Shown here: piece after piece, positions 29-16,432 of the stretch
Numbering within the stretch: the first letter of the stretch is position 1
Layout of the letters: each line of letters begins with the position of its first letter
Virus record (IMG/VR): IMGVR_UViG_3300026457_000013
Span: 18,253-82,252 of that record
Direction: 5' to 3' (one strand)
Origin: a virus
Length of the DNA: 64,000 bases
Notes under the pieces: model-generated
The model's database searches: none
The model's input: only the letters and a program-made list of their open reading frames with translations
What the model was told of the DNA's origin: nothing
Translations under genes and position numbers: made by a program

Positions 29-280
29 GTGGATAGCAGAAACGCACAGGACTTGGCGATGACACCTAACATAGTCAAGCAAGTATTAGAATTATATAGC
101 CAAGATATTGCTAAGGTTACTAAACTAACCAACAGTGATATTTTGGCTACAAGTGTTTTTAAGCTGCGAGATTATGAACTTGCCACGCTACTTCAAATGA
201 TATATAATAAAGGTATGACTGACACCTTAGACAGTTTAGAAAGTGACGTAGAAGATATAGGTAGAAGTCAGTACGATTAA
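29..280 (+). CDS. hypothetical phage protein
   Basis: 83 aa ORF, co-oriented with neighbours; true start may differ. Confidence 0.55.
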   Translation: MDSRNAQDLAMTPNIVKQVLELYSQDIAKVTKLTNSDILATSVFKLRDYELATLLQMIYNKGMTDTLDSLESDVEDIGRSQYD

Positions 281-291
281 AGGAGAATAAC

Positions 292-855
292 ATGGCCAAT
301 TGTTGGCTTATCAGTGACATGCATTTTGGTCATGCTAATATTATAAAATTTACCAGGCACGACGGCACTTGGCTGCGTCCCTTTAGTAGTGTTGAAGAGA
401 TGGACGAATACATGATCGACAACTGGAACAGTGTTGTCAATAGTAAAGACCGTGTATACATGCTAGGTGATGTAGTTATCAATCGTAAAAACCTACATGT
501 GTTGGGCAGACTTAGCGGACGTAAGGTGTTGATCAAAGGCAATCACGATATTTTTCCTGCTGAAGAATACCTCAATTACGTAGATGATGTTCGTGGTTAT
601 CATGTACTTGACGGTATGCTGTTGAGTCATATACCAGTACATCCAGATAGCCTACAGCGATTTGGCTGTAATATTCACGGACACCTACACTATCGTGAGG
701 TTGTACTAGCAGGTGATAAAGTTGACCCTAGATATTTTAACGTAAGTGTAGAACGTGTTGACTATACTCCAATCAGCTTTGAAGAATGTAAGCGTATAAT
801 TAAATTTCGTGGTGGTCATGTAGGCTTCCACGAACACGGTGAAAGGGCAATGTAG
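292..855 (+). CDS. calcineurin-like metallophosphoesterase
   Basis: SDMHFGH, LGDV, KGNHD, SHIP and IHGHLH motifs; AAGGAG RBS. Confidence 0.9.
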   Translation: MANCWLISDMHFGHANIIKFTRHDGTWLRPFSSVEEMDEYMIDNWNSVVNSKDRVYMLGDVVINRKNLHVLGRLSGRKVLIKGNHDIFPAEEYLNYVDDVRGYHVLDGMLLSHIPVHPDSLQRFGCNIHGHLHYREVVLAGDKVDPRYFNVSVERVDYTPISFEECKRIIKFRGGHVGFHEHGERAM

Positions 856-1124
856 TGGCATATTATATCAGAGACGGTGAATTAGTACCTGTAGCTATTC
901 CATTAAATCAACGTGTTAAGATTGGCAAGTACTACGAACCACCACAACTAAGCTATCTTAGCAATGACCAGCTGTGGATACAAGATGTTTATGTGTTCAA
1001 GCAAATTCCCTGGTATATGATTAAAAATCGCTATGAACGTTACCTACTATACGCTACCTTATACGGTGCTATAGTAGTAATGCTAACCATGATTGGCCGA
1101 TATTGGCTAGGAGCACCCAATTGA
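855..1124 (+). CDS. hypothetical membrane protein
   Basis: Stop/start overlap with upstream gene; C-terminal hydrophobic helix. Confidence 0.65.
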   Translation: MAYYIRDGELVPVAIPLNQRVKIGKYYEPPQLSYLSNDQLWIQDVYVFKQIPWYMIKNRYERYLLYATLYGAIVVMLTMIGRYWLGAPN

Positions 1125-1321
1125 ACAAACAATTAGTAGAAACTTATCGTCGCCGGAGTTTTGCTAGGTTTATGAAGAATGAAACCAACTATGAACTCCT
1201 AGTGCAACTTGTAGTTGAAGATTGCCTGGCAATTATAGAAGCTAATAAGTCACCTAATAAAGTGGCAATGACCAATAAGATTAAACAACACTTTGGAATC
1301 AGTCATGGAACAGAAGTATGA
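1103..1321 (+). CDS. hypothetical protein
   Basis: In-operon ORF; likely TTG start near 1121 after AGGAG. Confidence 0.55.
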   Translation: MARSTQLNKQLVETYRRRSFARFMKNETNYELLVQLVVEDCLAIIEANKSPNKVAMTNKIKQHFGISHGTEV

Positions 1322-1469
1322 AACTATCGAGGTTGAGTTAACTGACGAAGAATTTTTACAAATAGCAAAACTTGCACACGATCTAGACGTTACCTTTAAC
1401 AAAATGGTAGAGCGTATTCTGTGGGATGAAATTAATAAACAAGGCGATCTTTTTAGTGGAGATGCGTAG
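1305..1469 (+). CDS. small protein, possibly ribbon-helix-helix-like (54 aa, MEQKYETIEVELTDEEFLQIAKLAHDLDVTFNKMVERIL...)
   Basis: Read directly from sequence (below ORF-track cutoff); fills the gap between 1321 and 1469. Confidence 0.6.
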   Translation: MEQKYETIEVELTDEEFLQIAKLAHDLDVTFNKMVERILWDEINKQGDLFSGDA

Positions 1470-1777
1470 TGGATCAAGAGATTATTGACGCAATTAACAG
1501 TGCTCTTAAACCAAATCAACAACCACAAACACCCACAAAATTGTCGCCAAGATTTAAGGCACTGGCTAGGGAATGTGGCTTTGTATTTTGGAATAGTGAA
1601 CCACACGGCCCTGGGCCTGGACATATTGACTGGAGCTGTGATTATACTAGTGAGTTTGAACACTATAGCCGTGAACTTGTAATCTGGACTTGTGAACTAA
1701 TGCGGCAGGAGATTGTACGCGACTACTTGTTTAGATCAAGTGAAAATACATATAAGCACCTAGTAGTTCAAGATTAA
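1469..1777 (+). CDS. hypothetical protein
   Basis: GTG start overlapping upstream stop; GGAG RBS. Confidence 0.6.
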   Translation: MDQEIIDAINSALKPNQQPQTPTKLSPRFKALARECGFVFWNSEPHGPGPGHIDWSCDYTSEFEHYSRELVIWTCELMRQEIVRDYLFRSSENTYKHLVVQD

Positions 1778-1787
1778 AAATTTTATC

Positions 1788-1817
1788 TTGAACTTGTAGC
1801 CCAAACCTTGCTATAAT
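1788..1817 (+). promoter_or_regulatory. sigma70 promoter TTGAAC-18-TATAAT (extended -10)
   Basis: Consensus match with AT-rich UP element. Confidence 0.8.
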
Positions 1818-2180
1818 ATTATTATAGTCAGTGAGGAAAGTAAAGCCTGACAAGGCCCACAGCTTTAAATGACATTTTGCCACGCTTAGTAAATATTTTA
1901 TCTTATACAAAATGTGCATTGTAGCGACCACTGACTGTACTTGGCAGTATCCTAATGGCTAATAATCTACAGGAGAAATCAACGATAAAAAATCTTAGTT
2001 GCTTCCAACAACTAAGCGCGATATAGCCAGCGTTAGGGGCTTTAGGTTAGTTGCCAAACCTCCCACTGGGCAGACATCCAGGTTTAGGGTAAAACGGTAA
2101 CGGAGTCTACCTTACTCCGACTAAGGTATGGACAGAGTAACAGCTCAAGCTAGGGCCATGTGGAAGTGGTGGCTAGCCAA

Positions 2181-2279
2181 ATCCTCTGATGATTCATTGC
2201 GATATGATGAAACCCTAAACCCACAAGGTTGACGCTGTGGCCTTCAATTGCCGCACCTGCCGCGGTTTAGGGTAAGGAT
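2181..2279 (+). ncRNA. type I hammerhead ribozyme (predicted cleavage after A2274, GUA)
   Basis: Stem I ATCCT/AGGAT; CTGATGA core; stem II TCAT/ATGA; GAAA; stem III CCCTAAACC/GGTTTAGGG; then TA. Confidence 0.7.
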
Positions 2280-2458
2280 AATAAGGCCCGATAAGCTTGC
2301 TGTCACATTCCCTAGTGGCTAGCGGCCAATGTCGAGGCGGGTGAGAGTCCCGTCAACTAAAATATGTGAGTGATGGTGGACTACGCATAAGGTTATTTGA
2401 GACCTGCGGACTGTCGTCCAATAGTAACAAGACAATATGATCCAGTTTAGGGACTGGT

Positions 2459-2507
2459 ATCATATTCAAGCACACTGGTCGCCTCGTCAAGTGTGTTTGA
2501 ATATGAT
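2459..2507 (+). other. 18-bp hairpin, possible RNase III processing site
   Basis: ATCATATTCAAGCACACT / AGTGTGTTTGAATATGAT with one G-U pair. Confidence 0.5.
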
Positions 2508-2515
2508 TTTTCTTT

Positions 2516-2539
2516 GGCAGCCACTTGGCTGCCGTTTTT
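2516..2539 (+). terminator. intrinsic terminator
   Basis: GGCAGCC-ACTT-GGCTGCC followed by GTTTTT. Confidence 0.7.
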
Positions 2540-2552
2540 GTCTGGAGAACAA

Positions 2553-2795
2553 ATGTATACATGTAAAGTTGTTAACAGCTTAACTAGTGCCGTTGTTGAT
2601 GAGTTTGAGGTTGACTATCTTTACGAAGCTAGACTAAAGTTTAGCAGGTGGCATGCAGATGCAGACCCAACACAATACGATTGTCACGTCTACGACGAGT
2701 TTGGCGATGCCATAGACTTTACCAGCGATATTGATAGTAGTGTGTACGAGCCTAGTGAGTACGATGAGTGGATGAGTTATGACCCAGATTGTTAA
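2553..2795 (+). CDS. acidic hypothetical protein
   Basis: GGAG RBS before ATG 2553; acidic C-terminus (EYDEWMSYDPDC). Confidence 0.7.
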   Translation: MYTCKVVNSLTSAVVDEFEVDYLYEARLKFSRWHADADPTQYDCHVYDEFGDAIDFTSDIDSSVYEPSEYDEWMSYDPDC

Positions 2796-3033
2796 ACTTG
2801 CCAAAGAGCACGGTGCTACACACAAGGCAAACCTAGGTGTTTATCAGTTCTATGAATATGAATGGGTCAACTATAATAATGCCCTAGTTGAAGTAGCGCT
2901 AGAGGCATTACAAGACTTACGCGGATATTCGGGCGTTGGCGCCGACGGCAATCCACTGTGCACCCACAGTTGGAACAGTGCACTGCTTGCAGCTGAACAG
3001 CTTATCAAGGAGCGCATCCTTGGCACTGTATAA
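2779..3033 (+). CDS. hypothetical protein
   Basis: Overlapping in-operon ORF. Confidence 0.6.
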   Translation: MTQIVKLAKEHGATHKANLGVYQFYEYEWVNYNNALVEVALEALQDLRGYSGVGADGNPLCTHSWNSALLAAEQLIKERILGTV

Positions 3034-3304
3034 ACACTTATGCCCAGACTGGGACTTCCTAGAAATAGACGATGAGTGTGAGGAGTTTAATACTTGTACA
3101 TGCAAGATAGATAGTAGTGGTCAAACAGCTAAATTTACCGCTGGCACTAAAGTACTAGTACTGCCAAATCAAATGCAGGCTACTGTTATCAAACAGCACC
3201 TAAGCTATGACGGGCCTGAGAGTTTTTGGGGCAATGTACTAGTAGAGTATAACGATGGTATTCGTGGTACTTGCAATAATTGGCAACTAAAATACATAGA
3301 GTAA
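3020..3304 (+). CDS. hypothetical protein (possible SH3-like C-terminal half)
   Basis: AAGGAG RBS before TTG 3020, in frame with the 2936 ORF. Confidence 0.6.
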   Translation: MALYKHLCPDWDFLEIDDECEEFNTCTCKIDSSGQTAKFTAGTKVLVLPNQMQATVIKQHLSYDGPESFWGNVLVEYNDGIRGTCNNWQLKYIE

Positions 3305-3307
3305 AAC

Positions 3308-3394
3308 ATGGATCATGACAACCACGGCTACAAGCGCACTATAATTTTTGTGTTACTGTTACTCTCACTCGTATTAGCCATGTTATTCGGCTAA
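3308..3394 (+). CDS. 28 aa membrane peptide MDHDNHGYKRTIIFVLLLLSLVLAMLFG
   Basis: Directly follows upstream gene; single hydrophobic helix. Confidence 0.45.
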   Translation: MDHDNHGYKRTIIFVLLLLSLVLAMLFG

Positions 3395-3409
3395 ACGGAA
3401 AATATTCTC

Positions 3410-3438
3410 TTGAAGTGCCGGCCTAACCAGTGTATAAT
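3410..3438 (+). promoter_or_regulatory. sigma70 promoter TTGAAG-17-TATAAT
   Basis: Shares AAATATT..CTTGA and TATAATATT flanks with the promoters at 3674 and 4129. Confidence 0.8.
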
Positions 3439-3462
3439 ATTTATATAATGTGAGGAGCGACA

Positions 3463-3663
3463 ATGACTATTGAAGTGTATACACGTAAGGCTAAATTTGC
3501 CGAACTTAGTGCATATTGCCTTCACGCTAGTGATGGTGATTTTATGGAGGTATGTGAGTGGAGTAATGGTGAAGGGTTTGATGTTACCATCAACAACCGT
3601 ACCCTGCAGTTCACATATGGCCAGTGGGACTGTTTACGAGTTTTGGTAAATTATAAAGACTAG
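3463..3663 (+). CDS. hypothetical protein
   Basis: GAGGAG RBS; own promoter. Confidence 0.75.
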   Translation: MTIEVYTRKAKFAELSAYCLHASDGDFMEVCEWSNGEGFDVTINNRTLQFTYGQWDCLRVLVNYKD

Positions 3664-3673
3664 AAATATTCAC

Positions 3674-3702
3674 TTGATTTGTTGGTCAGAAGTCTGTATA
3701 AT
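3674..3702 (+). promoter_or_regulatory. sigma70 promoter TTGATT-17-TATAAT
   Basis: Consensus match. Confidence 0.75.
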
Positions 3703-3824
3703 ATTATTTATCGGTTAGAGAACAATCGCCAGAGAGTACAACCAACTAATATTCGGGCTAAGCTATGACTTAGCAGCGGTACTCCCTCTAACCCTAGACA
3801 AATAGCAAATTACAAGGAGCACCT

Positions 3825-4118
3825 ATGCGATTCAAGTATACTGCAAAGAAGCCTAGCCGAGATCAGCTTGCTGGCATGAGTGCTAGCCAATTTAAGACCA
3901 TGTTAAAGCGTAAGGGTTTTAAGGTTGATCGTGACTTCTTTAAGATAGGTGCAATGGCTAAGCGTGGTAACAGACTGTATCGCTTTCGTTACTGGGCATA
4001 CCCTGATTTCTTTGTAGACATTAGCTGCCCTCTCGATGAATTTGATCGTTGGGCTAATAGTGTGGACAGTACCATTAACTTCTACAACTTCATCGAAACA
4101 CAAACACTAAAGCAGTAA
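3825..4118 (+). CDS. basic hypothetical protein
   Basis: AAGGAG RBS. Confidence 0.75.
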   Translation: MRFKYTAKKPSRDQLAGMSASQFKTMLKRKGFKVDRDFFKIGAMAKRGNRLYRFRYWAYPDFFVDISCPLDEFDRWANSVDSTINFYNFIETQTLKQ

Positions 4119-4128
4119 AAATATTCAC

Positions 4129-4157
4129 TTGAAGTTTATGTTCCCACAGTGTATAAT
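4129..4157 (+). promoter_or_regulatory. sigma70 promoter TTGAAG-17-TATAAT
   Basis: Consensus match. Confidence 0.8.
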
Positions 4158-4951
4158 ATTATTATTGAGTGACAAGTTTAGGGCGAACCAGGGCCAACAT
4201 TAATCTGTTGGATAAGTTCTTAATCTGTGTTGAAAACACCCTTAACACAGACCCCACGAATGGCAGATGGTCGTTGTTAAATGTGGATACTAAAAATATC
4301 CGCTCCTGAAAGGTGCAAATCCTAAAAGTATAGTCGGGCGAGAAGGCCGGGCAATCCAAGGAGATCAACCAAGGGCTATATGCAGAGTGCCAGGTAAAAA
4401 CAACATTGACCAACCAACCTATTTGTATAATCACCGGCTTGATCCCATGCAACTGGTGGTTATACAAATGTGTTGAAATCTGTGGCCAACGTGCTTGCGT
4501 AGCTAACCTGCTGCGGAACGGACGCACATGGTGGAAGCTGCAACCACCCTAAAGGAACCAGCCCCCTAGTTTGTCAATAGTTATAGGGGTTAACCAAAAG
4601 ACCTGTTACCGTAGCATATACGTAGTTATGCGTTATCTAACACGAGAGTTAGAAACCAGTGGAGCCGATTCTGCGAAAGCATGGCGGCCACCCACTACAT
4701 GCCAGTAGCTCAAACGTGCTCAGAGCAAAGGTGTGCTAGAAATAAGCCCTCTAGCCTGGCCAACAATTCAAACACAGTGCAGAGTGAACATTAGCCTATA
4801 GCTAGCTGCCAGCAACTAAAAACAGTGCGTTGCTAAGGTTTGAAACCGATCCAGTTTAGGGTCGGGGTTTAGCAGTAACCTAAAACTGCTTGTGCCCTAA
4901 GGGGCCAATGCGCCAACAATAAATGGCAAGGCTATAACCACAGTGCCTGGT

Positions 4952-5021
4952 TAGTCGCGTTCTTATAATTGTTAATAGCCCTCAACGCAGGGTAATCTAG
5001 GTGCAAATCCTAGACGCGCTA
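4952..5021 (+). tRNA. degenerate tRNA-like cloverleaf with non-canonical anticodon loop
   Basis: Acceptor CGCGT/ACGCG; D stem TTAT/ATAG; CCCT/AGGG arm with 6-nt loop; T arm CTAGG-TGCAAAT-CCTAG; no CCA. Confidence 0.45.
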
Positions 5022-5202
5022 GTTGCCCATCTTGGCTGGAACCCAAGACCTAAAGCAACTAAGAACAGCAAATGTTCGTGGCATCAACTACACCGACTTA
5101 CGACGACTCGCAATCGTCTAGAGTGTAGACAAAGATGAATGGTGGTCGTAGTAGCACTACATAAAAGTAATCCACCCCATTAAACCAAAAACAGCGCAGT
5201 TC

Positions 5203-5231
5203 AAAAGCCCGCCTTGTGCGGGCTTTTGTTT
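5203..5231 (+). terminator. intrinsic terminator
   Basis: AAAAGCCCGC-CTTGT-GCGGGCTTTT. Confidence 0.85.
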
Positions 5232-5250
5232 ATCTAAAAGGCTATAAAAC

Positions 5251-5463
5251 ATGTCTCAAGAATTAACCAACCAGCAACTAAAAGACCTTAACGACGATGT
5301 CCAAGAATTCATCGACAAGCTAAGGATACACTACAACGACGATACCCTAGCCATTGCAGCAGCACTAACGCAGTGGGGGCTAAGGCTTTACAAGAGTGAG
5401 CTGAGCACACCAGAATTCTACCAACTATTAGTCTACACAATTGAAACTAACCGCTTCCTCTGA
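5251..5463 (+). CDS. hypothetical protein
   Basis: 70 aa ORF with weak AAGG RBS. Confidence 0.6.
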   Translation: MSQELTNQQLKDLNDDVQEFIDKLRIHYNDDTLAIAAALTQWGLRLYKSELSTPEFYQLLVYTIETNRFL

Positions 5464-5498
5464 CCCTAAACCTCAACAACCCTCACTAAAAAATTCAC

Positions 5499-5528
5499 TT
5501 GTTTTTGCTTATGCAAATGTGATATAAT
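5499..5528 (+). promoter_or_regulatory. extended -10 promoter TTGTTT-18-TATAAT
   Basis: TGnTATAAT with AATTCACTTG flank like the other early promoters. Confidence 0.65.
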
Positions 5529-5787
5529 TTATTATAAATTGAAAAAATTTAGAATTAGCAGCTGTACAGTGCAACTAGTACAAAACTCTGGGGGGTGTCC
5601 TGGCAAGGGGGGATCCAGGGGGCTTTGTGCTAGGTAGCTCGCAACCGGTACAAGGCTAGCTAATTCTAGAGATTTAGGGTCAAATCTCGAACCTTAAAAA
5701 GAGCAAATATAAAAATTAAAGCAAATTTTCCCACCCCCCAAAAGTGCTCCAGCCCTAGCAAAACCACAACTAACCAAACAAGCTAAA

Positions 5788-6537
5788 ATGTATATTAGAC
5801 AGCAAGATATAAAAACCTTAGAACTGGATCACCTAGCCAATCAAGCTACTGAATCAATTGAAACCTGGGTAAAAGACAACAATCTTTGCAACCATGCTAG
5901 CTGGCTACTACCACAGCTGGTAAATTGGTTTGGCAGCTGGCAACTCTACAATGACGGTAAAACTACTGTAGCCAAAAATTGCACCAATAATTGGGCTCGT
6001 GCCATTTATAGGATTAGTCGTGTAAAGCGTAGCTTGCTCATTAGAACACAAACTAAACTGCCACAGTATGGGCAGCTAACTCCACTCCTTATGTTAGGAT
6101 TTAAGCGCTATCAAGGTTATAGCTATGAACAATTTCGTGAAATCGAGGGCTTAGAGTGGTTGCTGGAACCTGATTTATATGAATCACTAGTAAATATAGA
6201 GCCTATAGACCTTAGCCAAAACAGACTACTAGCTATACGCACTCAAGGGTTAATTACAAAAAGCGGATCAAAAACTGGTGAGCTTAAAAATCCAGAGAGT
6301 ACTTGGTCACTAACAGGTATCAAGGACACTGAATTAGGCAACTACCCTAAACTTGTGCAAACTATGGTTTGTCAAATTTGGCTAGCACATCCCAAGCATC
6401 GTAACAGTGACATGATCTTAGACCCTAATAATTGGGATGCAATGCCTAAACCATTAATAGATGATACAAGCGGCATTGTTAGTGTATCCAAGGAATCGAC
6501 CAAGGTGCTAACACGCGAGATATTGCCATGGGACTAA
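5788..6537 (+). CDS. hypothetical protein (249 aa)
   Basis: Long ORF with genome-typical codon use; no family recognised. Confidence 0.75.
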   Translation: MYIRQQDIKTLELDHLANQATESIETWVKDNNLCNHASWLLPQLVNWFGSWQLYNDGKTTVAKNCTNNWARAIYRISRVKRSLLIRTQTKLPQYGQLTPLLMLGFKRYQGYSYEQFREIEGLEWLLEPDLYESLVNIEPIDLSQNRLLAIRTQGLITKSGSKTGELKNPESTWSLTGIKDTELGNYPKLVQTMVCQIWLAHPKHRNSDMILDPNNWDAMPKPLIDDTSGIVSVSKESTKVLTREILPWD

Positions 6538-6597
6538 TTATAGTTGATAGTTTAGTTACTAACAATTTTAATAATATAACGATTTAGGGTCAAAATT

Positions 6598-6909
6598 ATG
6601 AAATACAACAAGGAACTAACTGACAAGATTGTGGAGCAGTATAAAAGTGGTCAAACCGCTAAACAAATAGCAGAAGGTCTTGGCGTCGCTGACCGTAGCA
6701 TAATTGCCAAGCTGAGCAGTTTGGGTGTCTACCAAAAAAAGACGTATGTCAACAAACGTGGTGAGGTGCCCATCAAGAAGTACGAGATGATCGAACGATT
6801 GGCCGAATTGTTGGAGGTGCCAAGCGATCAGCTGGAGAGTTTGGAAAAAGTCAACAAAAACGTACTTAAATTGCTTGAAAACCGCTTATCTGACCCTAAA
6901 CCGCAATAA
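6598..6909 (+). CDS. T5 A2-like DNA-binding protein (paralog 1)
   Basis: HTH followed by RSIIAKLSSLGVYQKK and ESLEK, resembling T5 A2 from memory. Confidence 0.7.
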   Translation: MKYNKELTDKIVEQYKSGQTAKQIAEGLGVADRSIIAKLSSLGVYQKKTYVNKRGEVPIKKYEMIERLAELLEVPSDQLESLEKVNKNVLKLLENRLSDPKPQ

Positions 6910-6940
6910 TCGTCGATAATCCAGCTAAATTCTAGCCAAT

Positions 6941-6967
6941 AAGCCCTGCCTTGTGCAGGGCTTTTTT
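6941..6967 (+). terminator. intrinsic terminator
   Basis: AAGCCCTGC-CTTGT-GCAGGGCTTTTTT. Confidence 0.85.
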
Positions 6968-7015
6968 ATTGTGTGACATAGTGGGTTTCTGCGGTTTAGG
7001 GTCAGAATTATTTAC

Positions 7016-7045
7016 TTGACTTGGGTCAGGGATTTGCACTATAAT
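7016..7045 (+). promoter_or_regulatory. promoter TTGACT-18-TATAAT with no downstream gene, followed by TTGGCGC
   Basis: Degenerate member of the repeated module. Confidence 0.6.
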
Positions 7046-7246
7046 GTTGGCGCAGACCCCCAAGATTTTGCACTTGTGGAGTTTTGGCACTGGCGCAAGC
7101 TCAAAGTTTAGCACTTGAGTTTTTGCACTGGCGCAGCACCACTGGTGGTGTGCTAAGTTCTAGAACGTATAATGTTATGGACCCTAAACCGTTATGGTTT
7201 ATATAATTTAGCATGGTTACAGAAATTGGTACGTTATAGAAACTAA

Positions 7247-7328
7247 CCGACCAGCGGCGGCTTAGGGTCGACAAACGGTGGCATTTTCGCTTGACACCCA
7301 CGCAAATTTTATGGTAAAATTTGGCGCC
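7247..7328 (+). promoter_or_regulatory. repeated module 1: box pair + TTGACA-18-TAAAAT + TTGGCGCC
   Basis: CCGACCAGCGG-N10-TCGACAAACGG-N12-TTGACA. Confidence 0.8.
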
Positions 7329-7370
7329 ATATCGTTATAAATTATATAAATCATAACCTGGCCAATCGAC

Positions 7371-7475
7371 CCGACCAGTGGCAGTTAGCGGCTGATGAAC
7401 GGCAGGAAAAACGCTTGACACCCGCGCAATTATACTAGTATAATTGGCGCCACCGCTATAAAAAATATAGCGGTG
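7371..7475 (+). promoter_or_regulatory. repeated module 2: box pair + TTGACA-18-TATAAT + TTGGCGCC + hairpin
   Basis: CCGACCAGTGG-N10-CTGATGAACGG-N12-TTGACA; CACCGCTATA/TATAGCGGTG hairpin. Confidence 0.85.
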
Positions 7476-7508
7476 CAAATTCTATATTTTATAACCGTTA
7501 TGTGAAAA

Positions 7509-7540
7509 ATAACGGCCCGCTCGGGGCCGTTATGGTTTTT
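7509..7540. terminator. bidirectional terminator
   Basis: ATAACGGCCC-GCTCG-GGGCCGTTAT flanked by A and T runs. Confidence 0.7.
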
Positions 7541-7546
7541 AGAATC

Positions 7547-7861
7547 CTAGTCTACCAAATCCATTTCCAGCATGTTATCAATTATATAACCTGGAAGCTT
7601 GGTAGTTTCGCAATTCATATAACGCTCTAGGGCTAAGAACTCGCCAATCTTGCGATCAAACTTGTCATTATCAGCGCACCAAGCAAAGCTAACGTCATAA
7701 AATTTAGCATGACGCGCATTGTGCGCACAAGGCATGGCCACAAGAGCGAATCCGTTTTCATCACCCATAGGTGCGCGAGTGTGGACAATTCCGCCAGATT
7801 CTAGAACGTAGGCAAGCAAGTCCTTACGAATGATTTTTTGGTTTTTGGTCATTTTTTCCAT
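7547..7861 (-). CDS. hypothetical pre-early protein
   Basis: AAGGA RBS; 104 aa. Confidence 0.75.
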   Translation of the reverse strand: MEKMTKNQKIIRKDLLAYVLESGGIVHTRAPMGDENGFALVAMPCAHNARHAKFYDVSFAWCADNDKFDRKIGEFLALERYMNCETTKLPGYIIDNMLEMDLVD

Positions 7862-7916
7862 AACAGTAGTTCCTTTTAGAGTTTAGAACGGAACGGGTTT
7901 TGGCCCGTTCCAGTTT

Positions 7917-8243
7917 TTACAGCGGTTTGCTGTTAGCTAAAGCATCGAAAATCGCTTTAAGAGCCGACTTGTTAGCCTTAGTTAGCGATTCTATATCGTT
8001 TTCCGATAGGCGAAGAATCGCGCCGATTGCATCGGCCGTTACATCTTTTTTAACGGGCTTTTCGCCAGTTTTTGTAACGTACTGTTTTGCAACATAAACT
8101 TTCTCGCGCGAAAGTTTCGCTACAATCGAACGAACGGTTTTACCCATAGCCGAAGCAATATCTTCGACCTTGACGCCCGCCTGATAGTCCGCTATAATTT
8201 TAGCGGTTTGCTCGGCGGTATAGTTAACGGCTTTTTCTGCCAT
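7917..8243 (-). CDS. T5 A2-like DNA-binding protein (paralog 2)
   Basis: Start MAEKAVNY with AGGAG RBS; KTVRSIVAKLSREKVYVAK. Confidence 0.8.
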   Translation of the reverse strand: MAEKAVNYTAEQTAKIIADYQAGVKVEDIASAMGKTVRSIVAKLSREKVYVAKQYVTKTGEKPVKKDVTADAIGAILRLSENDIESLTKANKSALKAIFDALANSKPL

Positions 8244-8383
8244 TGCTATAGCTCCTAGAACTGTTGCAGTTTCGACCCCATGTCCCCTGCAACAGAACCC
8301 ATTATACACCTATCTGCCTGGCAGATTGTCGCCCTAGCGACAATTGGCCTACCATTCATCAGGTGGATCAGCGGCAACCCCAC

Positions 8384-8508
8384 CCGACCAGCGGCAGACT
8401 GCATCCGACGAACGGCACCCCGCAGGGCTTGACACGCAGGCAAAAATTATGATATAATTATATCATAATTTTGGCGCCATCGCTCTAAATTCTATAACTT
8501 AGAGCGAT
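8384..8508 (+). promoter_or_regulatory. repeated module 3
   Basis: CCGACCAGCGG-N10-CCGACGAACGG-N13-TTGACA-18-TATAAT; TTGGCGCC; ATCGCTCTAA/TTAGAGCGAT hairpin. Confidence 0.85.
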
Positions 8509-8513
8509 ATAAT

Positions 8514-8547
8514 AAAAAATATAGCGGCTTGTGCCGCTATATTTTTT
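8514..8547. terminator. bidirectional terminator
   Basis: AAAAAATATAGCGGC-TTGT-GCCGCTATATTTTTT. Confidence 0.85.
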
Positions 8548-8935
8548 ATAACGTCCTCACAATTGGTTCGTTTTTATTTATATAATATTCATGGGTTGCG
8601 CTTGGTGGCAAGCCATACTCTAGCATCATGCGCCGCCAATCAGGGCCATGCCAAAAGTCTGTGGGGTCTTCGCCATTAATTATATAATCTGCAACATGGA
8701 TTAGCTCATGCGGTACAATAACGCAAAGCATCTCGGCTTTATAACGGTTAAAAAACTTGCTAGCAAATTCTACCTCATGCACCTCGCAGTGTGCGAGGCC
8801 CGCAGTGCGATACATGCGATTGCTAATTCTAACTTTTGGAACGCTATGCGTTTTTAGTTCTGGCCACAATTCTTGCATAGCAGTCCAGTGTAGGGTAACA
8901 GCGGCTGTTACAACTTTTATCAACGAATCGGCCAT
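8546..8935 (-). CDS. SprT-like zinc metalloprotease
   Basis: RMYRTAGLA, HELIH (HExxH) and HGPDWRRMM. Confidence 0.85.
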   Translation of the reverse strand: MADSLIKVVTAAVTLHWTAMQELWPELKTHSVPKVRISNRMYRTAGLAHCEVHEVEFASKFFNRYKAEMLCVIVPHELIHVADYIINGEDPTDFWHGPDWRRMMLEYGLPPSATHEYYINKNEPIVRTL

Positions 8936-9171
8936 AATTTATACCTCGCAATAATTGTTACAAGAAATAGATTGACGATATAGTTTGCTATAAGAATCAT
9001 ATCGCCTTTGGGCACGATATAGACTGTCATGGAAACCATACCAGTCCACCACATTGTTATAAAACCTAGTGTAAGCCCGTCTGAGTTTTTAGAACGATAG
9101 GATTCAATGGCTTGGGGCAGGGCCGAAGCCCCAAGCAGTATAGAACCTAGAACGCCGAATGTATCAAACAT
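8920..9171 (-). CDS. PQ-loop / SemiSWEET-like 3-TM membrane protein
   Basis: Start MFDTFG; ALPQAIESYRSKNSDGL; three hydrophobic helices. Confidence 0.8.
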   Translation of the reverse strand: MFDTFGVLGSILLGASALPQAIESYRSKNSDGLTLGFITMWWTGMVSMTVYIVPKGDMILIANYIVNLFLVTIIARYKLWPIR

Positions 9172-9856
9172 TGTAATGATCCTTGACCTGAAATTTTTTC
9201 CAATCATAGGGCTCGATCTTATCGCGCCAACCTTTAGAACGTACAATTTTTTGTAGGATTGGAATCTCAAAATCGCGGGCATCCTCAAGGGCAGTGTGGG
9301 GTTCAGTAGTAAGATTACCAGTTACAAAACCTGCAACAGTCTCGGCATCAGTCTTGAACGTCATATTACCTTTATCGGTCGCATTATTAAAACGATGATT
9401 GTCGAGCACAAAACGCTTATACTTTTTGGAACGGCAGATGTTACCTACAGCGGCTTGCCAAAGGCAAAAGCGGCTAGTGAAAGAATCTAGAACGATACCA
9501 GAGTTAGCACATTTGCTAGCGTCGAAGGCGAGATTGTATGCGGTTAGAATAGGGTCATAAGTACCGATACATTTATTAATCCAATTATTTATAGCGGTTA
9601 CCGACGCAAGCATACGTGTACCAGAATCTAGCATGTTCTGATAATTAGCACGACGACGCTCAAGGTTAGCAGAGGCCCAGAAACCGTTATTGTTTTTGTC
9701 ATGGAATAAGGTTGCAGGGTCATAGAACTCACGAACTAGAACGCTACAACTATTGTAAATCTTGCCGTGACGGTCACAAACCACAATGGCAAAATCCATA
9801 ACGGTATCGTTGATAGTCGTTTCAGTATCTAGAACAGCGAAGTATTGTCGTTTCAT
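9164..9856 (-). CDS. DEDDh 3'-5' exonuclease
   Basis: LDTETT, AYNLAFD and HTALEDA; resembles a T5 pre-early gene from memory. Confidence 0.85.
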   Translation of the reverse strand: MKRQYFAVLDTETTINDTVMDFAIVVCDRHGKIYNSCSVLVREFYDPATLFHDKNNNGFWASANLERRRANYQNMLDSGTRMLASVTAINNWINKCIGTYDPILTAYNLAFDASKCANSGIVLDSFTSRFCLWQAAVGNICRSKKYKRFVLDNHRFNNATDKGNMTFKTDAETVAGFVTGNLTTEPHTALEDARDFEIPILQKIVRSKGWRDKIEPYDWKKFQVKDHYNV

Positions 9857-9961
9857 AATTTATAACCTAGTAAATGTGACAGAACCCCTAGTATACCACA
9901 AAATCCGCGCAAGTGCCAGTTTTGGCTGCCGCCCATCGGCTGTGGGCCGCCGCACATCCGA

Positions 9962-10075
9962 CCGACCAGCGGTCGCCAGGAGCCGACGAACGGTCGGCCC
10001 GGGCCTTGACACGCCTGCAAAAATTATGGTATAATTTTTGGCGCCATGGCTATAAATTTTATAATTTATAGCCAT
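9962..10075 (+). promoter_or_regulatory. repeated module 4
   Basis: CCGACCAGCGG-N10-CCGACGAACGG-N12-TTGACA-18-TATAAT; TTGGCGCC; 13-bp hairpin. Confidence 0.85.
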
Positions 10076-10087
10076 AACGTGGAACAG

Positions 10088-10103
10088 TGTTCCACGTGAA
10101 ACC
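10088..10103. promoter_or_regulatory. parS: parS site TGTTCCACGTGAAACC, with adjacent half-site ACGTGGAACA at 10077-10086
   Basis: 15/16 match to the bacterial consensus TGTTNCACGTGAAACA. Confidence 0.8.
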
Positions 10104-10306
10104 TAAACTTTGTGCAAACTATCCCAAATTGCAAGATTACGCTGTGCCATTTTTTGGTACAATTCAGCGCCTACCAAGTGGCCGCGACTAATATCGTTTC
10201 TAGAATATTGTAAATATCGTTCTGCATTTTCTAACAACATGCGACTAGCAAGTTTGTGCCAAAACGTAGAACGATTGGCTAGGTCTTTCCAATATTGCTC
10301 GCTCAT
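10103..10306 (-). CDS. hypothetical pre-early protein
   Basis: GAGGA RBS; overlaps upstream stop. Confidence 0.7.
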   Translation of the reverse strand: MSEQYWKDLANRSTFWHKLASRMLLENAERYLQYSRNDISRGHLVGAELYQKMAQRNLAIWDSLHKV

Positions 10307-10488
10307 ACTAATTCCTCAGGTAAACTGTTATATTCTTTATAAAGGCTATCGTACATTCTAATAACCCAACCTATATCGTTCCAATCGCTAACCGTTCCAA
10401 AATCTGGACGATAGCCGTATATATCAAAATACAGATCGCAAAATTTGTCCTGCATTGCCCAAAGTTCTATAGCCTTTACATTTTTCAT
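10303..10488 (-). CDS. hypothetical pre-early protein
   Basis: Start MKNVKA after AAGGA; D.Y.DIYGYRP motif. Confidence 0.7.
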   Translation of the reverse strand: MKNVKAIELWAMQDKFCDLYFDIYGYRPDFGTVSDWNDIGWVIRMYDSLYKEYNSLPEELV

Positions 10489-10489
10489 A

Positions 10490-10966
10490 TCAATGTCCTT
10501 GTTTGCTTGGAACATAAACGCCCCTAATGTTAAAGTAATCACAAACCGCTTTAAGATATGCTACATTATCCTCATAAAATACAGCGTCATTAAAATGATA
10601 ACCTAAATTGCTATACAATTTGAAAATCCGTTTTAGTCCTTCAATCTTGAGAGTAGCACCAGAACGGTTATCATTTTCATTACGGCTAACTATATGGTCA
10701 GGTGTACCTAGTCTGCTATAAATAAATGCACGATCAGGGTTCCGCAAAATGCGGGCAGTAGCAATAACAACAATACAGTAGGGATCATCGAGATCGTTTT
10801 TATATTGTTCTGCAAGTGGTAACAGTGAATCCTCCAGTGCGCGATATTCATTAGCACGCCAGTAGTCGAGGTCAATGCGCTCAATACCGTTATCAACAAT
10901 GGTACGATACCTGTGCATACTGCAAACGATTGTGCCATCCATGTCATAGATTGCTATCCTTTTCAT
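10490..10966 (-). CDS. HAD-superfamily phosphatase
   Basis: IYDMDGT, IATAR, conserved K and YEDN motifs. Confidence 0.85.
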   Translation of the reverse strand: MKRIAIYDMDGTIVCSMHRYRTIVDNGIERIDLDYWRANEYRALEDSLLPLAEQYKNDLDDPYCIVVIATARILRNPDRAFIYSRLGTPDHIVSRNENDNRSGATLKIEGLKRIFKLYSNLGYHFNDAVFYEDNVAYLKAVCDYFNIRGVYVPSKQGH

Positions 10967-11172
10967 AACCTATATCCTTATAAAGTCTAGAATGTTGTAA
11001 GGTTTAACTTGTCTGCCCTTGCCCTATCGGCCCTATCCGAGGGTAGGCGGGGTTACTAGCCGCCTAGAGTCATGCCCTACAACAGAAACAAGTATACCTG
11101 AATTTTTGAGGTCAAATGTCGTCCAAGCGACAATTGCCTACCATCCATACCTTACAGCCTGCCACACATCAG

Positions 11173-11283
11173 CCGACCAGTGGTCGACCCTACCCGATGA
11201 ACGGCGGCCCTGGGGCTTGACACGGCTGCAAATTATATGCTATAATTTGGCGCGTCAGCGCTCTAAGTTCTATAACCTAGAGC
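11173..11283 (+). promoter_or_regulatory. repeated module 5
   Basis: CCGACCAGTGG-N10-CCGATGAACGG-N12-TTGACA-18-TATAAT; TTGGCGC; GCTCTA/TAGAGC hairpin. Confidence 0.85.
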
Positions 11284-11285
11284 AG

Positions 11286-11301
11286 TGTTTCACGTGAAAC
11301 T
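11286..11301. promoter_or_regulatory. parS: parS site TGTTTCACGTGAAACT
   Basis: Perfect 14-bp palindrome GTTTCACGTGAAAC; 15/16 match to consensus. Confidence 0.85.
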
Positions 11302-11411
11302 GTATCGTGCTAAAAACCATAGCATGCCCATAACGTACAACCACAGCATCATCATAATAATGTTTCTATAATTCATATCGTTATAGTAGGGGCTTGCGCC
11401 CCTACCCCTTG

Positions 11412-11738
11412 CTAGTCGGCAGATTGCCTGATAAAATCGCTGATTGCACGCAGTGCGCTCTTGTTAGCTTTCGTTAACGATTCTATATCGTTCTCTGAGA
11501 GCTTGAGAGCTGCGCCGATAAAATCAGCGTGAACGTCTTTTTTGATGGGGCTTTCGCCGTTCTTGGTTCTATATTCTTTAGCGACGTAAACCTTTTCACG
11601 GCTGAGCTTTGCTACAATTGAGCGAACAGTCTTGCCCATTGCTTGTGCAATTTGCTCAACGCTAACACCGGCCTGATAGTCGGCCACAATCTGAGCAGTT
11701 TGCTCAGGGCTATAATTAGGGGCTTTGGCTGTTGCCAT
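11412..11738 (-). CDS. T5 A2-like DNA-binding protein (paralog 3)
   Basis: Highly similar to 7917-8243; AGGAG RBS. Confidence 0.85.
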   Translation of the reverse strand: MATAKAPNYSPEQTAQIVADYQAGVSVEQIAQAMGKTVRSIVAKLSREKVYVAKEYRTKNGESPIKKDVHADFIGAALKLSENDIESLTKANKSALRAISDFIRQSAD

Positions 11739-11771
11739 TTCAGCTACTCCTGTTGTGTTGAAAGAAACTCT

Positions 11772-11845
11772 AGTATAGGCTAGTTGTAGTGCTAAGTCAA
11801 GTAAAAAATCTTACCGCTCGTCGGCCAGTAACTACCATTGGTCGG
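11772..11845 (-). promoter_or_regulatory. promoter TTGACT-17-TATACT with the same upstream box pair, driving A2-like paralog 3
   Basis: Minus strand CCGACCAATGG-N10-CCGACGAGCGG-N13-TTGACT. Confidence 0.8.
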
Positions 11846-12018
11846 CTTAACACAGTTATAAACTTTACTACAAGTTTTGTGCTAAGTTATAGAACTTATA
11901 CCGACCAGGGGCGGTTGTTAGACTTTATATAACTTATAGCGGTGGGGCCCTCGCTTACGGCCTATCATTAAAAATTTTTCGAAAAGACCAAGGTGCCAAA
12001 TCCGACCCTAAACCGTAC

Positions 12019-12063
12019 CAACAGCCACAACAGCCACAACAGCCACAACAGCCACAACAGCCC
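12019..12063 (+). repeat. tandem repeat (CAACAGCCA)x4 plus one imperfect copy
   Basis: Read directly from sequence. Confidence 0.95.
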
Positions 12064-12084
12064 ACTGCCCAAAAAATTTTCAAC

Positions 12085-12114
12085 TTGCCTAACAACTACC
12101 ACCCATGATATACT
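12085..12114 (+). promoter_or_regulatory. promoter TTGCCT-18-TATACT for the terminase genes
   Basis: Extended -10 TGaTATACT; A/T-rich UP element. Confidence 0.65.
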
Positions 12115-12134
12115 CCAATAAACTGGAGAAACCA

Positions 12135-12605
12135 ATGACTACACACCTACCAGCCGAAACCCTACAAATCTCACCAGAAGCACTGGAAGTAGCCAACTGC
12201 TATCTTCAGCTTAATGATGCTAAAAGGGTAGCCCATGAACTAAGCCTACATCCAGACCAAGTCACACAAATCTTAGGTCGCCGCGAGGTCAAGCAGTATA
12301 TTGACCAAGTATTCTTTGACATGGGCTACAACAACCGATTTTTAATGCGTCAGGCAATGGATGCACTAATCAAGCAAAAGTTTTCTGAGTTGGAGGAAGC
12401 TGGTGTTGGATCTAGCAAAGATATTGCAGACTTATTACACCTGTCGCATAAAATGTCAATGGATCTCCTAGACAAGCAATTGCAGCTGGAAAAGCTGCGC
12501 ACACAAGCTCCAGGCCCACAAAAGCAGGTGAACGTGCAAATCAATGATGATGGCAGCAAGTATTCGCAGCTTATACATAAACTTGTGAGTGGAGACGGCA
12601 TATGA
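12135..12605 (+). CDS. terS: terminase small subunit (T5-like)
   Basis: ISPEALEVANCYL and VFFDMGYNNRF; GGAG RBS; upstream of terL. Confidence 0.85.
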   Translation: MTTHLPAETLQISPEALEVANCYLQLNDAKRVAHELSLHPDQVTQILGRREVKQYIDQVFFDMGYNNRFLMRQAMDALIKQKFSELEEAGVGSSKDIADLLHLSHKMSMDLLDKQLQLEKLRTQAPGPQKQVNVQINDDGSKYSQLIHKLVSGDGI

Positions 12606-12700
12606 GTGCCCTATGGTTCACCCTAAACTGTATCGGCCTTAGCATCTTAATAACAATAGCACTAGCGGAACTCATCCATGCTCGTAGTAAGCAGAAATAA
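12602..12700 (+). CDS. 32 aa membrane peptide MSALWFTLNCIGLSILITIALAELIHARSKQK
   Basis: ATGA overlap with terS stop; hydrophobic helix with basic tail. Confidence 0.4.
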   Translation: MSALWFTLNCIGLSILITIALAELIHARSKQK

Positions 12701-13967
12701 CGTAGAAACAGAGTACATTAAGGAGTTTGATCCTACCAAGCGATTTATCAAACTGCCTATCGACAACTACTTACGACTCTTAAATCTATACGATACCATC
12801 AACAGGCCCCAAATCGCACTAATCAATAGTGTTAATGATCCACAGTATAGGTTTATCTGTGCTGCACTTGCCAGACGATTGGGCAAAACATACATAGCCA
12901 ATGTTATAGGTCAGCTGGTTACACTAGTACCCAACAGTAATGTACTTATCATTAGCCCTAACTATAATTTGAGTGCAATCAGTTTTGAGCTGCAGCGTAG
13001 GTTAATCAAGCATTTTGACCTGGAAGTAACCCGTGATAACCTCAAGGACAAGATTATTGAGCTCAGCAATGGATCAACTATCAGAATGGGATCTATTAGC
13101 ACAGTGGATTCAACAGTTGGTCGTAGTTATGACCTTATAATATTCGACGAGGCTGCACTTAGTGAGCATGGCGAGGACGCATTTAACATTGCCTTACGCC
13201 CTACACTAGACAAACCATCGGCAAAAGCCATATTTATTAGCACACCACGTGGTAAAAACAACTGGTTTTCAAAGTTCTGGTCGCGTGGATTTGACCCTAA
13301 CTTTCCAGAGTGGGTTAGTTTGCAGGCAGATTATTCGGAGAATAGCCGCATGGCACAGTCGGATGTTGATGAAGCACGTAGATCCATGTCGAAGTCGGAG
13401 TTTGAGCAGGAATATATGGCAAGTTTTACTAGTTACTTAGGCCAAATTTATGAAGGGTTTAAGCCTGAGTATATCCTAGACCAACTACCAGACCTGCGCG
13501 GTGAAGCTATTGCTGGTGTAGATGTAGGATACAAGGATGCCACTGCCTGGGTTAACATAATATACGACTATAATACCGACTGTTTTTATGCTGTAGAAGA
13601 TTATTTGGAGCCAGAGCGTACTACTAGAGAACATGCCGAACATTTTCATAGAATGATAGATAGTTGGAGTATACAAACTGTATTTATTGATAGTGCAGCA
13701 GCACAATTTGCTGCTGACCTAGCTTACAACTACGATATTGCTACTACTAAAGCTAAAAAAGACGTACTTGCAGGCATTGCATACGTGCAAACACTAGTCC
13801 AGCAAGGCAGATTTAGGGTACACAGAAATTGTCACCACGTTATAGCTATGCTAGATGCTTATCAGTGGGATAACCGCGAAAATTTAGCGCGTGAACGTCC
13901 TAAACACAACGAGTACAGTCACATGGCTGATGCTGTTCGTTATGCACTATACAGTTATGTAGTATAG
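12678..13967 (+). CDS. terL: terminase large subunit
   Basis: Walker A ARRLGKT, Walker B IIFDEAA, ISTPRG, nuclease HMADAVRYA. Confidence 0.95.
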   Translation: MLVVSRNNVETEYIKEFDPTKRFIKLPIDNYLRLLNLYDTINRPQIALINSVNDPQYRFICAALARRLGKTYIANVIGQLVTLVPNSNVLIISPNYNLSAISFELQRRLIKHFDLEVTRDNLKDKIIELSNGSTIRMGSISTVDSTVGRSYDLIIFDEAALSEHGEDAFNIALRPTLDKPSAKAIFISTPRGKNNWFSKFWSRGFDPNFPEWVSLQADYSENSRMAQSDVDEARRSMSKSEFEQEYMASFTSYLGQIYEGFKPEYILDQLPDLRGEAIAGVDVGYKDATAWVNIIYDYNTDCFYAVEDYLEPERTTREHAEHFHRMIDSWSIQTVFIDSAAAQFAADLAYNYDIATTKAKKDVLAGIAYVQTLVQQGRFRVHRNCHHVIAMLDAYQWDNRENLARERPKHNEYSHMADAVRYALYSYVV

Positions 13968-14656
13968 GGTACTTTCCAGCCTTTGTATTGTTTTTTATGT
14001 CCACGCAATACTTCGCCTAATGAGCCGTGGTTTAAATTATGCTCTCTACAAAAACCCCTAAGACTGGGCTTAATGTCATAAATAATATTATCAGGACTTA
14101 TTATTTGAGGATAACCTGTAGTTTTAATATTTTTCGCAACCTTTCTCTTAGTACCCTTTAACTCTAAAAGTAATTTATATTCTGCTGGATACAAATTTTT
14201 TAACCAACTATGTGATGCGCCACTAGAAACATCTGCTAATGCTCCGCGGCTAATACCTGTTATTTCTATAATTTCTCTATGAGTTAATTTATTATCTACA
14301 AGATAGTGAAAAACTTCTATAATTAAGTCATTACTATATTTTGCGTTGCCGGCATTTTCACCATATAAATCCTGTCTATTTGTAAAACTTTTAAAAGCAT
14401 TAAACCCATTATTTACAGAATCATATATTGCAATAGCTTCTTCTTCTATAGAATCTAATTCATCAACAGTACATTCAACCAAAATTTCTAAGTTTGGCAT
14501 ACCAAATTCATTGTAAGCTTGCTGTAATTTTTTTCTGCTTTTTTGATTTTTTAGCGAAGTTTTATGGCTAATATATCTGCGCTCAATATCTATAGATTGC
14601 CCTATGTATACTTTATTAGTTCCACAAAAATTTAATTTATAAATGCCAACTGTCAT
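13955..14656 (-). mobile_element. free-standing GIY-YIG homing endonuclease
   Basis: VGIYKL..KVYIGQS..IERR; NUMOD-like C-terminus; AT-rich; antisense to the operon. Confidence 0.9.
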
Positions 14657-16422: not shown

Positions 16423-16432
16423 GAGGAGTAAG

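Follow-up and report, generated by a model that had tools for sequence, protein, structure and literature searches.

According to the parts of the survey by Perreault et al. 2011 (PMC3088659) on which we draw, hammerhead ribozymes of all three topologies are common in bacteria, the type II form with a pseudoknot being very common, and known examples include some between phage genes (PaP3, Bcep176) and others that flank ardA, an anti-restriction gene, in polycistronic RNAs. An excerpt of a second source (PMC6765202) puts their number in bacteria and phages in the thousands and describes their roles as unsettled, with the processing of polycistronic transcripts as one suggestion. Here we analyze an element of this kind in a 64-kb stretch of viral DNA, hereafter the window, which represents the last 64 kb of the 82,252-bp IMG/VR virus record IMGVR_UViG_3300026457_000013; unless indicated otherwise, coordinates are those of the window and features lie on the + strand. 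Judged by its sequence and by covariation among its relatives, the segment at 2181-2279 has a genuine type I hammerhead fold. It belongs to a small clade of uncultured siphovirus-like phages from freshwater or rivers, and it probably serves as a self-cleaving processing element within a noncoding, multi-part transcript.

Read as RNA, the element begins with the 5′ strand of stem I, AUCCU (2181-2185), which pairs with AGGAU (2275-2279), the first bases of the predicted 3′ product. The core segment C3-A9, CUGAUGA (2186-2192), leads into the stem II hairpin (2193-2208), in which a U2193.U2208 apposition at 10.1-11.1 is followed by the helix UCAU/AUGA (2194-2197/2204-2207) and the loop UGCGAU (2198-2203). 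The second core segment, GAAA (2209-2212), supplies G12, A13, A14 and A15.1, the last of which, A2212, pairs with U2273. The two strands of the 9-bp stem III, CCCUAAACC (DNA CCCTAAACC; 2213-2221) and GGUUUAGGG (DNA GGTTTAGGG; 2264-2272), of which the latter coincides with a recurrent motif of this genome, GTTTAGGG(T), enclose a domain of 42 nucleotides (nt; 2222-2263) that contains an inner hairpin, UGUGGC/GCCGCA (2236-2241/2250-2255). U16.1 and A17 (2273-2274) complete the core, and cleavage is predicted between A2274 and A2275, a position that we take from the hammerhead consensus. Direct readout of the sequence confirmed every letter reported for 2181-2279 in a preliminary description of this locus: the order of the core, its coordinates, the 9-bp stem III, the 42-nt insert and the GUA site are all present as described there, as is the core-proximal U-U that it had entered as a caveat. 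All 13 consensus core positions (C3-A9 with N7, G12-A14, A15.1-U16.1 and H17) agree with the window sequence. A type I descriptor that specifies, in its 5′ half, a stem I with a minimum of 5 bp, CUGANGA, a stem II with a minimum of 4 bp in which a single core-proximal mismatch is tolerated, and GAAA, and, in its 3′ half, stem III of at least 5 bp with at most 90 nt enclosed, followed by U and H, matches the two strands of the window once, at 2181-2279, and has no match in 300 dinucleotide shuffles of the window, which argues that the motif is not a chance product of composition.

Homologs were gathered by two routes. Via the flanking proteins we reached four IMG/VR contigs in which the entire noncoding stretch is present, and metagenome contigs were scanned with a 20-nt anchor from module B, the nearly invariant noncoding RNA that follows the hammerhead (2275-2471), so that these homologs were not selected on the ribozyme. 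The anchor scan yielded 30 loci, 15 of them homologous and 15 unrelated, GC-rich chance matches, and the resulting set comprises 20 contigs (the window, the four IMG/VR contigs and 15 metagenome contigs). A covariance model of the hammerhead (R1), built from 10 sequences, was run on 17 sources, with the exclusion of L017, L126 and L131, whose 124-125-nt stretch duplicates that of another contig. It found one hammerhead each in 16 of the 17 sources and none in contig L109; when duplicates are included, 19 of the 20 contigs are positive. No second copy was detected in the window's own 82-kb record, no match for window 1700-2700 among 50,697 GenBank phage records, none for a 22-nt module B anchor in the genome collection, and nothing beyond the same four contigs when the viral contigs were searched with the 3′ strand of stem III joined to stem I. 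A separate search of the viral contigs with the pattern CTGATGA N{8,30} GAAACCCTAAAC, which is biased toward the hammerhead, returned 12 loci, all unrelated and probably due to chance.

The pattern of substitutions among the 16 distinct sequences supports the hammerhead reading. None of the 13 core columns varies, as compared with 44 of the 102 hammerhead columns (hypergeometric P = 3.4e-4); the preliminary description had counted a core not conserved in homologous loci as grounds against the ribozyme, and both core segments, CUGAUGA and GAAA, as well as U16.1 and A17, are invariant in 16 of 16. In alignment A5, which was fitted to the model although it is almost gap-free, 98.5% of 400 cells are paired as opposed to 31-42% in controls with slid partners, and the covariation score of 0.352 compares with 0.136 in shuffles, none of which (0/500) scored as high. 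Stem II exists in three versions, GCUGG/CCAGC (11 sequences), GCCAC/GUGGC (1) and UUCAU/AUGAU (4, including the window), and the inner hairpin of the stem III domain in four, UGAUAG/CUAUCA (6), UGUAGC/GCUACA (5), UGUGGC/GCCGCA (3) and UAUGGC/GCCAUA (2). Both sides have changed in four of the five pairs of stem II and in five of the six pairs of the inner hairpin, the latter with 100% of cells paired, and the versions of the two helices are combined differently among contigs; G.U pairs are confined to the + strand. The relatives, in which the preliminary description had proposed to look for covariation, thus show compensatory changes both in stem II and in the inner, distal hairpin of stem III. 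The 3′ strand of stem III, GGUUUAGGGUA, is the same in 15 of the 16 sequences, the exception being L118 with GGCUUAGGG. The 5′ strand of the relatives reads CCC-AAACC (10 sequences), CCCAAAACC (1) or CUCUAAACA (1), with one position bulged or mismatched, and the perfect 9-bp stem III built of the recurrent motif belongs to the window-type lineage only. The earlier remark that stem III is made from that motif therefore holds for the window and fails for the 12 of 16 sequences with another 5′ strand.

The arrangement of the flanking RNAs points in the same direction. Upstream, the hammerhead adjoins module A (2015-2178), a structured RNA of an unnamed family that ends 2 nt before stem I, a spacing retained in all 16 sequences. 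In L109, a TTGAAC-17-TATAAT promoter, of the type that heads the noncoding stretch of the window, stands directly before module B (1494-1677 of that contig, - strand), with a start within a few nucleotides of that of the predicted cleavage product, and neither module A nor a hammerhead was found within its 3,246 nt of sequence. In L128, the hammerhead stays with module A, AGGAU is followed by an open reading frame (ORF) of 223 amino acids (1335-2006, - strand), and module B comes approximately 0.7 kb later. The encoded protein has a weak Pfam match to a TOD1/MUCI70 glycosyltransferase-like domain (E 7.6e-6), and 5 nt, a Shine-Dalgarno distance, separate the AAGGA of stem I from its ATG, so that cleavage would yield a messenger RNA (mRNA) with a 5′-OH and a leader of about 9 nt. 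These two arrangements indicate that the ribozyme moves together with module A and sits at the border with any RNA that comes next. The body of a type I hammerhead stays on the upstream product, which fits placement with module A, as would be expected of a processing element. The invariant core, the compensatory changes and the separable flanking modules together support the earlier proposal of a self-processing hammerhead within a noncoding, multi-part phage transcript.

Several observations weigh against this reading. In the alignment, stem I (5/5 pairs) and the proximal part of stem III (6/9 pairs) are invariant, so that covariation neither supports nor contradicts them; the helices that do covary exist in no more than 3 and 4 versions; and the strands of each of these helices are less than 20 nt apart, such that block inheritance adds to the counts. 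The check with Infernal and the Rfam hammerhead models that had been suggested at the outset came out negative: at the gathering score, the window gave no matches and the loci of eight relatives gave transfer RNAs (tRNAs) only, with no hammerhead family among them, and at E ≤10 window 1700-2700 gave two junk matches and no hammerhead. The best Rfam result is Hammerhead_3 (RF00008) in the relative L002 (4300-5350), with 23.2 bits against a gathering score of 48.5 and E 0.033; in this match CUGAUGA, stem II (canonical in L002) and GAAAC fit the model, and the rest is forced into the type III topology with non-standard pairs. The miss is probably attributable to the stem III domain of 42-43 nt together with the 5-bp stem I. 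A tertiary contact between stem I and stem II, in the form of a loop-loop interaction or a pseudoknot, is usual in fast natural hammerheads at physiological Mg2+. Inspection by eye revealed no stem I/loop II pairing kept in all sequences, L128 included, and stem I has only 5 bp; extensions of stem I and loop II pseudoknots were considered as candidates, and none is retained in L128. Loop II is conserved, its forms being UGCAACU, UGCAAUU, UGCAAU, UGCGAU and UGAGAU, and A-rich strands flank stem I.

The window's own copy adds to these points. Position 10.1-11.1 is G-C in 12 of the 16 distinct sequences and U.U in four (the window, L103, L111 and L115), which indicates a maintained variant and not a sequencing error. 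A G10.1-C11.1 pair closing stem II is usual in hammerheads and contributes to the metal site, although it is not an absolute requirement; its absence from the window allele would weigh against full activity of this copy and not against the fold. Stem II of the window also has an alternative register, UUCAUU/GAUGAA (2193-2198 with 2206-2211), that pairs G12-A14. The minimum-energy fold of the window element adopts this shifted register, which is favored by 1.0 kcal/mol over the competent fold; the core is unpaired with a probability of 0.06, versus 0.63 for the elements of three relatives, the minimum-energy fold of which, taken alone, is the exact hammerhead secondary structure. With its U.U and its competing register, the window allele is predicted to be slower in cleavage, or to leave more RNA uncut, than those of the relatives.

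RNA data bear on the same issue. Seventeen runs that are recorded as RNA, from river and freshwater metatranscriptomes, contain 37-57% of the sampled words of 1800-2560, and the evidence from them consists of assembled contigs, which cannot show RNA ends. In run X4, a 420-nt contig over 1990-2411 crosses the predicted cleavage site, a further point against efficient cutting here; its 18 differences from the window are all outside 2117-2344, and uncut molecules, or DNA, of the window-type allele must accordingly exist. In run X1 no contig covers 2254-2321, and in X2 none covers 2254-2295; the predicted site falls within both gaps, and X5 has no contig coverage there. Contig ends with adapter letters were observed at 2253 (X1 and X2) and 2296 (X2), each 21 nt from the predicted cleavage site. 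These ends may represent short inserts, reverse-transcription stops or real ends, and the gaps in X1 and X2 show neither cleavage nor its absence. Contig depths are about 100-5900 inside the noncoding stretch versus 7-54 for contigs that reach the flanking genes; per-contig depth is a poor measure, and the contrast is only a hint of an abundant RNA.

Of the alternatives to an efficient processing ribozyme, the one that survives best grants that the hammerhead works in the clade and holds that the window allele is crippled or deliberately slow, such that most transcripts in this phage would remain uncut, or else that its cleavage is conditional on Mg2+, co-transcriptional folding or a protein. 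The U.U at 10.1-11.1, the 4-bp, A-U-rich stem II and the competing 6-bp register that would sequester G12-A14 all favor this account, as do the low probability of an unpaired core in the predicted fold, the recurrence of the allele in 4 of the 16 distinct sequences and the RNA-library contig that spans the cleavage site and is identical to the window over 2117-2344. Against it, the competent fold lies merely 1.0 kcal/mol above the minimum, the remaining core and all other helices are intact, the U.U allele alone possesses a perfect 9-bp stem III, and the spanning contig could derive from DNA or from a minority of uncut RNA; moreover, stem II can be very short in natural hammerheads, as the cited part of PMC3088659 states. 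We lean against this account, although it is plausible enough to be kept in view.

A second alternative is that the segment is a non-catalytic three-way junction within a larger structured noncoding RNA, its likeness to a hammerhead being coincidental or a relic. The high conservation of the whole region makes the invariant core less telling, and the failure of any Rfam hammerhead model to reach the gathering score, the lack of an identified contact between stem I and stem II, and the predicted status of the cleavage speak for such a junction. It would, however, have to retain 13 core positions that match the consensus and are invariant amid 44 variable columns among 102, to have produced by coincidence a descriptor match that did not arise in 300 shuffles, and to keep its place at the boundary of separable RNA modules, whatever follows. 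We consider this improbable, and a self-cleaving hammerhead accounts better for these features.

The preliminary description also raised the possibility of a switch, given that GGTTTAGGGTA is present upstream as well, at 2081-2091. In this riboswitch-like scheme, the upstream GGUUUAGGGUA would compete with 2264-2272 for CCCUAAACC and turn the ribozyme off, and in the window the upstream copy could indeed pair equally well with 2213-2221. The upstream copy is not conserved, however, being replaced by CUGUGG (CTGTGG in DNA) in 6 of the 12 aligned sequences, and its partner within module A changes as well (CACUGG to CAGUAG), which argues that the upstream copy belongs to a helix of module A; furthermore, the perfect CCCUAAACC arm is absent from most relatives. 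The switch is very unlikely on these grounds.

The motif GTTTAGGG is itself unusually frequent, with 17 copies in the window, whereas 100 dinucleotide shuffles contained 2.29 on average and never more than 8, an approximately 7-fold excess, and 20 copies in the 82-kb record; one copy forms the nearly invariant 3′ strand of the hammerhead stem III. It occurs mostly as GTTTAGGGT(C), on both strands and both within and between genes, with the window copies restricted to the first 26 kb (sites include 4176, 4854, 5464, 6345, 6894, 6994, 7182, 12006, 12621, 15491, 16771, 20572 and 25961). At about 4150-4183 there is a second TATAATATTATTAT promoter-like string, possibly of the same promoter type as that at 1812, with GTTTAGGG within the 12 nt after it. 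The notion that the inverted copies of the motif (2213-2220, - strand, and 2265-2272, + strand) form a protein-binding palindrome or similar DNA-level element, with the RNA fold as a by-product, draws on this over-representation (17 versus 2.3 expected) and on the almost invariant 3′ arm GGTTTAGGGTA, yet it is scarcely credible, since 12 of the 16 sequences have something other than the motif as their 5′ arm (CCC-AAACC, CCCAAAACC, CTCTAAACA), so that the inverted DNA repeat is not conserved while the RNA pairing largely is, and since stem II and the inner hairpin show compensatory changes, as well as G.U pairs, that fit + strand RNA only.

The transcription unit around the hammerhead contains no long + strand ORF in 1778-2552, and one-base insertions and deletions between relatives argue against coding in this stretch. 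It is headed by a sigma-70-like promoter, TTGAAC-18-TATAAT (1788-1817), with 10 of 12 matches and TG before the -10 hexamer, that is conserved in relatives. The leader of the noncoding RNA (1825-2004) includes approximately 46 nt (about 1944-1989) that are absent from the four IMG/VR relatives in alignment A2. Module B terminates in a hairpin (2434-2466) with UUUAGGGA in its loop, and two sites with a hairpin and a T-run follow in 2461-2544, one recognized by eye (2461-2505) and one terminator-like with 8 pairs (2515-2534); they look like terminators that close the noncoding unit before the ORF starting at 2553. The 13 distinct sequences of module B, about 197 nt in length, have 55 predicted pairs, none of them changed on both sides, and no Rfam family explains this RNA in window 1700-2700 or in L002 4300-5350.

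Module A, in contrast to module B, is rich in compensatory substitutions: 26 of its 42 pairs have changed on both sides, with 90.3% of cells paired versus 35-42% for slid partners (15 distinct sequences). A covariance model (R2) built from 13 sequences, with window 2015-2178 (179.4 bits) among the seed sequences, was used to search 77 other phage loci that had been fetched via a phosphoesterase gene, and it matches 18 of them at E ≤0.01. The copies include L037 5675-5835, L068 3164-3325, L077 3733-3896, L056 6159-6321 and L059 5506-5665, with 13 weaker ones, and share a strongly conserved 3′ core, GGACAGRGUAAC..CUCA, followed by a GGGGC...GUAGC helix. They sit in tRNA arrays, and 6 of the 18 are followed by a tRNA after 4-10 nt; no hammerhead was found behind these copies, CUGANGA being absent from up to 400 nt downstream in 17 of 18. 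Rfam has no match to module A in window 1700-2700 or in L068 3120-3345, and two relatives of module A had no match in GenBank phages. Motifs such as GAAAGUCC suggested an RNase P-like or transfer-messenger RNA (tmRNA)-like identity for the two modules, which was dropped, as Rfam offers no support for either, no tmRNA was detected in the window by ARAGORN, and the relatives do not retain one candidate pseudoknot. Further noncoding modules, for example a long hairpin containing GAUUAGGGUUCGAUAC, are present behind module B in L002, L016, L018, L109 and L128 and are missing from the window, and in L056 one of these modules lies directly behind module A (6322-6375). To judge from these arrangements, the extra modules are shuffled between phages.

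The genes of the record are of siphovirus type, with terminase, portal, head, tape-measure and tail fiber proteins. At a distance of 1.3 kb upstream of the noncoding unit there is a metallophosphoesterase gene (phrog_547; 292-855), whose synteny with the unit extends to relatives, and a polynucleotide-kinase-like protein (phrog_415) is encoded at 10490-10966 (- strand). It is speculation that these enzymes could heal the 2′,3′-cyclic phosphate and 5′-OH ends of a ribozyme or repair tRNAs. Eleven tRNA genes are located upstream of the window (553-13816 of the record, G000), eight of them in an array at 13119-13816, about 6.3 kb before the noncoding unit. A gene for a GIY-YIG/HNH-type homing endonuclease (13955-14656, - strand) comes directly after the large terminase gene, on the opposite strand, and the ORF at 16373-18433 encodes a fusion of prohead protease and major head protein.

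The hammerhead is embedded in a promoter-to-terminator noncoding RNA (about 1825-2540), fused 2 nt behind module A. What follows on the cut itself, its site, the end chemistry and the biological purpose is inferred. During or after transcription, three helices would fold around the CUGAUGA/GAAA/UA core, and the RNA would cut itself at A2274/A2275. The upstream product, module A with nearly the whole ribozyme, would end in a 2′,3′-cyclic phosphate, and the RNA downstream, that is, module B here and an mRNA in L128, would be freed with a 5′-OH. The ribozyme may thus act as punctuation in a multi-part RNA, forming the 3′ end of module A. In related phages, the tRNA directly behind module A could mark the same boundary, presumably via RNase P. 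We suggest, with some hesitation, that a type I hammerhead has taken over this tRNA/RNase P punctuation role and that the two-register stem II of the window is a tuned, slow-cleaving variant that determines how much of the RNA stays joined relative to how much is separated.

How does this element relate to known systems? With the type I hammerheads (Rfam clan CL00010; RF00163, Hammerhead_1) it shares the order and letters of the core, an open stem I, the GUA triplet and a covarying stem II. It differs in that stem III encloses a domain of its own, 42-43 nt in length, with a covarying inner hairpin, that stem I has only 5 bp with no recognizable loop-loop or pseudoknot contact, and that the window has U.U at 10.1-11.1. 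Since the defining sequence and structure features of the hammerhead are present, the element is not a new kind of ribozyme; what is particular to it is the combination of type I topology and a structured stem III domain, the position between noncoding RNAs, the failure of Rfam models to find it and the existence of a natural weak allele, the one carried by the window. The Rfam hammerhead models accordingly miss a hammerhead that has good support and a long domain within stem III. The phage intergenic site and the presumed cutting of a multi-part transcript resemble the bacterial and phage hammerheads of Perreault et al. 2011 (PMC3088659), although the examples in the part of that survey used here adjoin protein genes (e.g., ardA), whereas the present element is of type I and stands between two structured noncoding RNAs, to one of which it is fused. 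The analysis also brought to light module A, an unnamed structured RNA family of phage tRNA arrays, and with it a parallel of a different kind. RNase P cuts at the 5′ ends of tRNAs and thereby punctuates phage arrays of tRNAs and small RNAs. For 6 of the 18 module A copies in other phages, the tRNA 4-10 nt behind it occupies the position of the hammerhead here. Unlike tRNA punctuation, cutting by the hammerhead would need no host enzyme, and it would leave a 2′,3′-cyclic phosphate and a 5′-OH, as opposed to a 3′-OH and a 5′-phosphate. These phages therefore present a natural comparison series, in which the boundary is formed by a ribozyme followed by a noncoding RNA, by a ribozyme followed by an inserted gene, by a promoter instead and, in other phages, by a tRNA instead; together with the two natural alleles that differ in the strength of stem II, this series makes the processing hypothesis directly testable.

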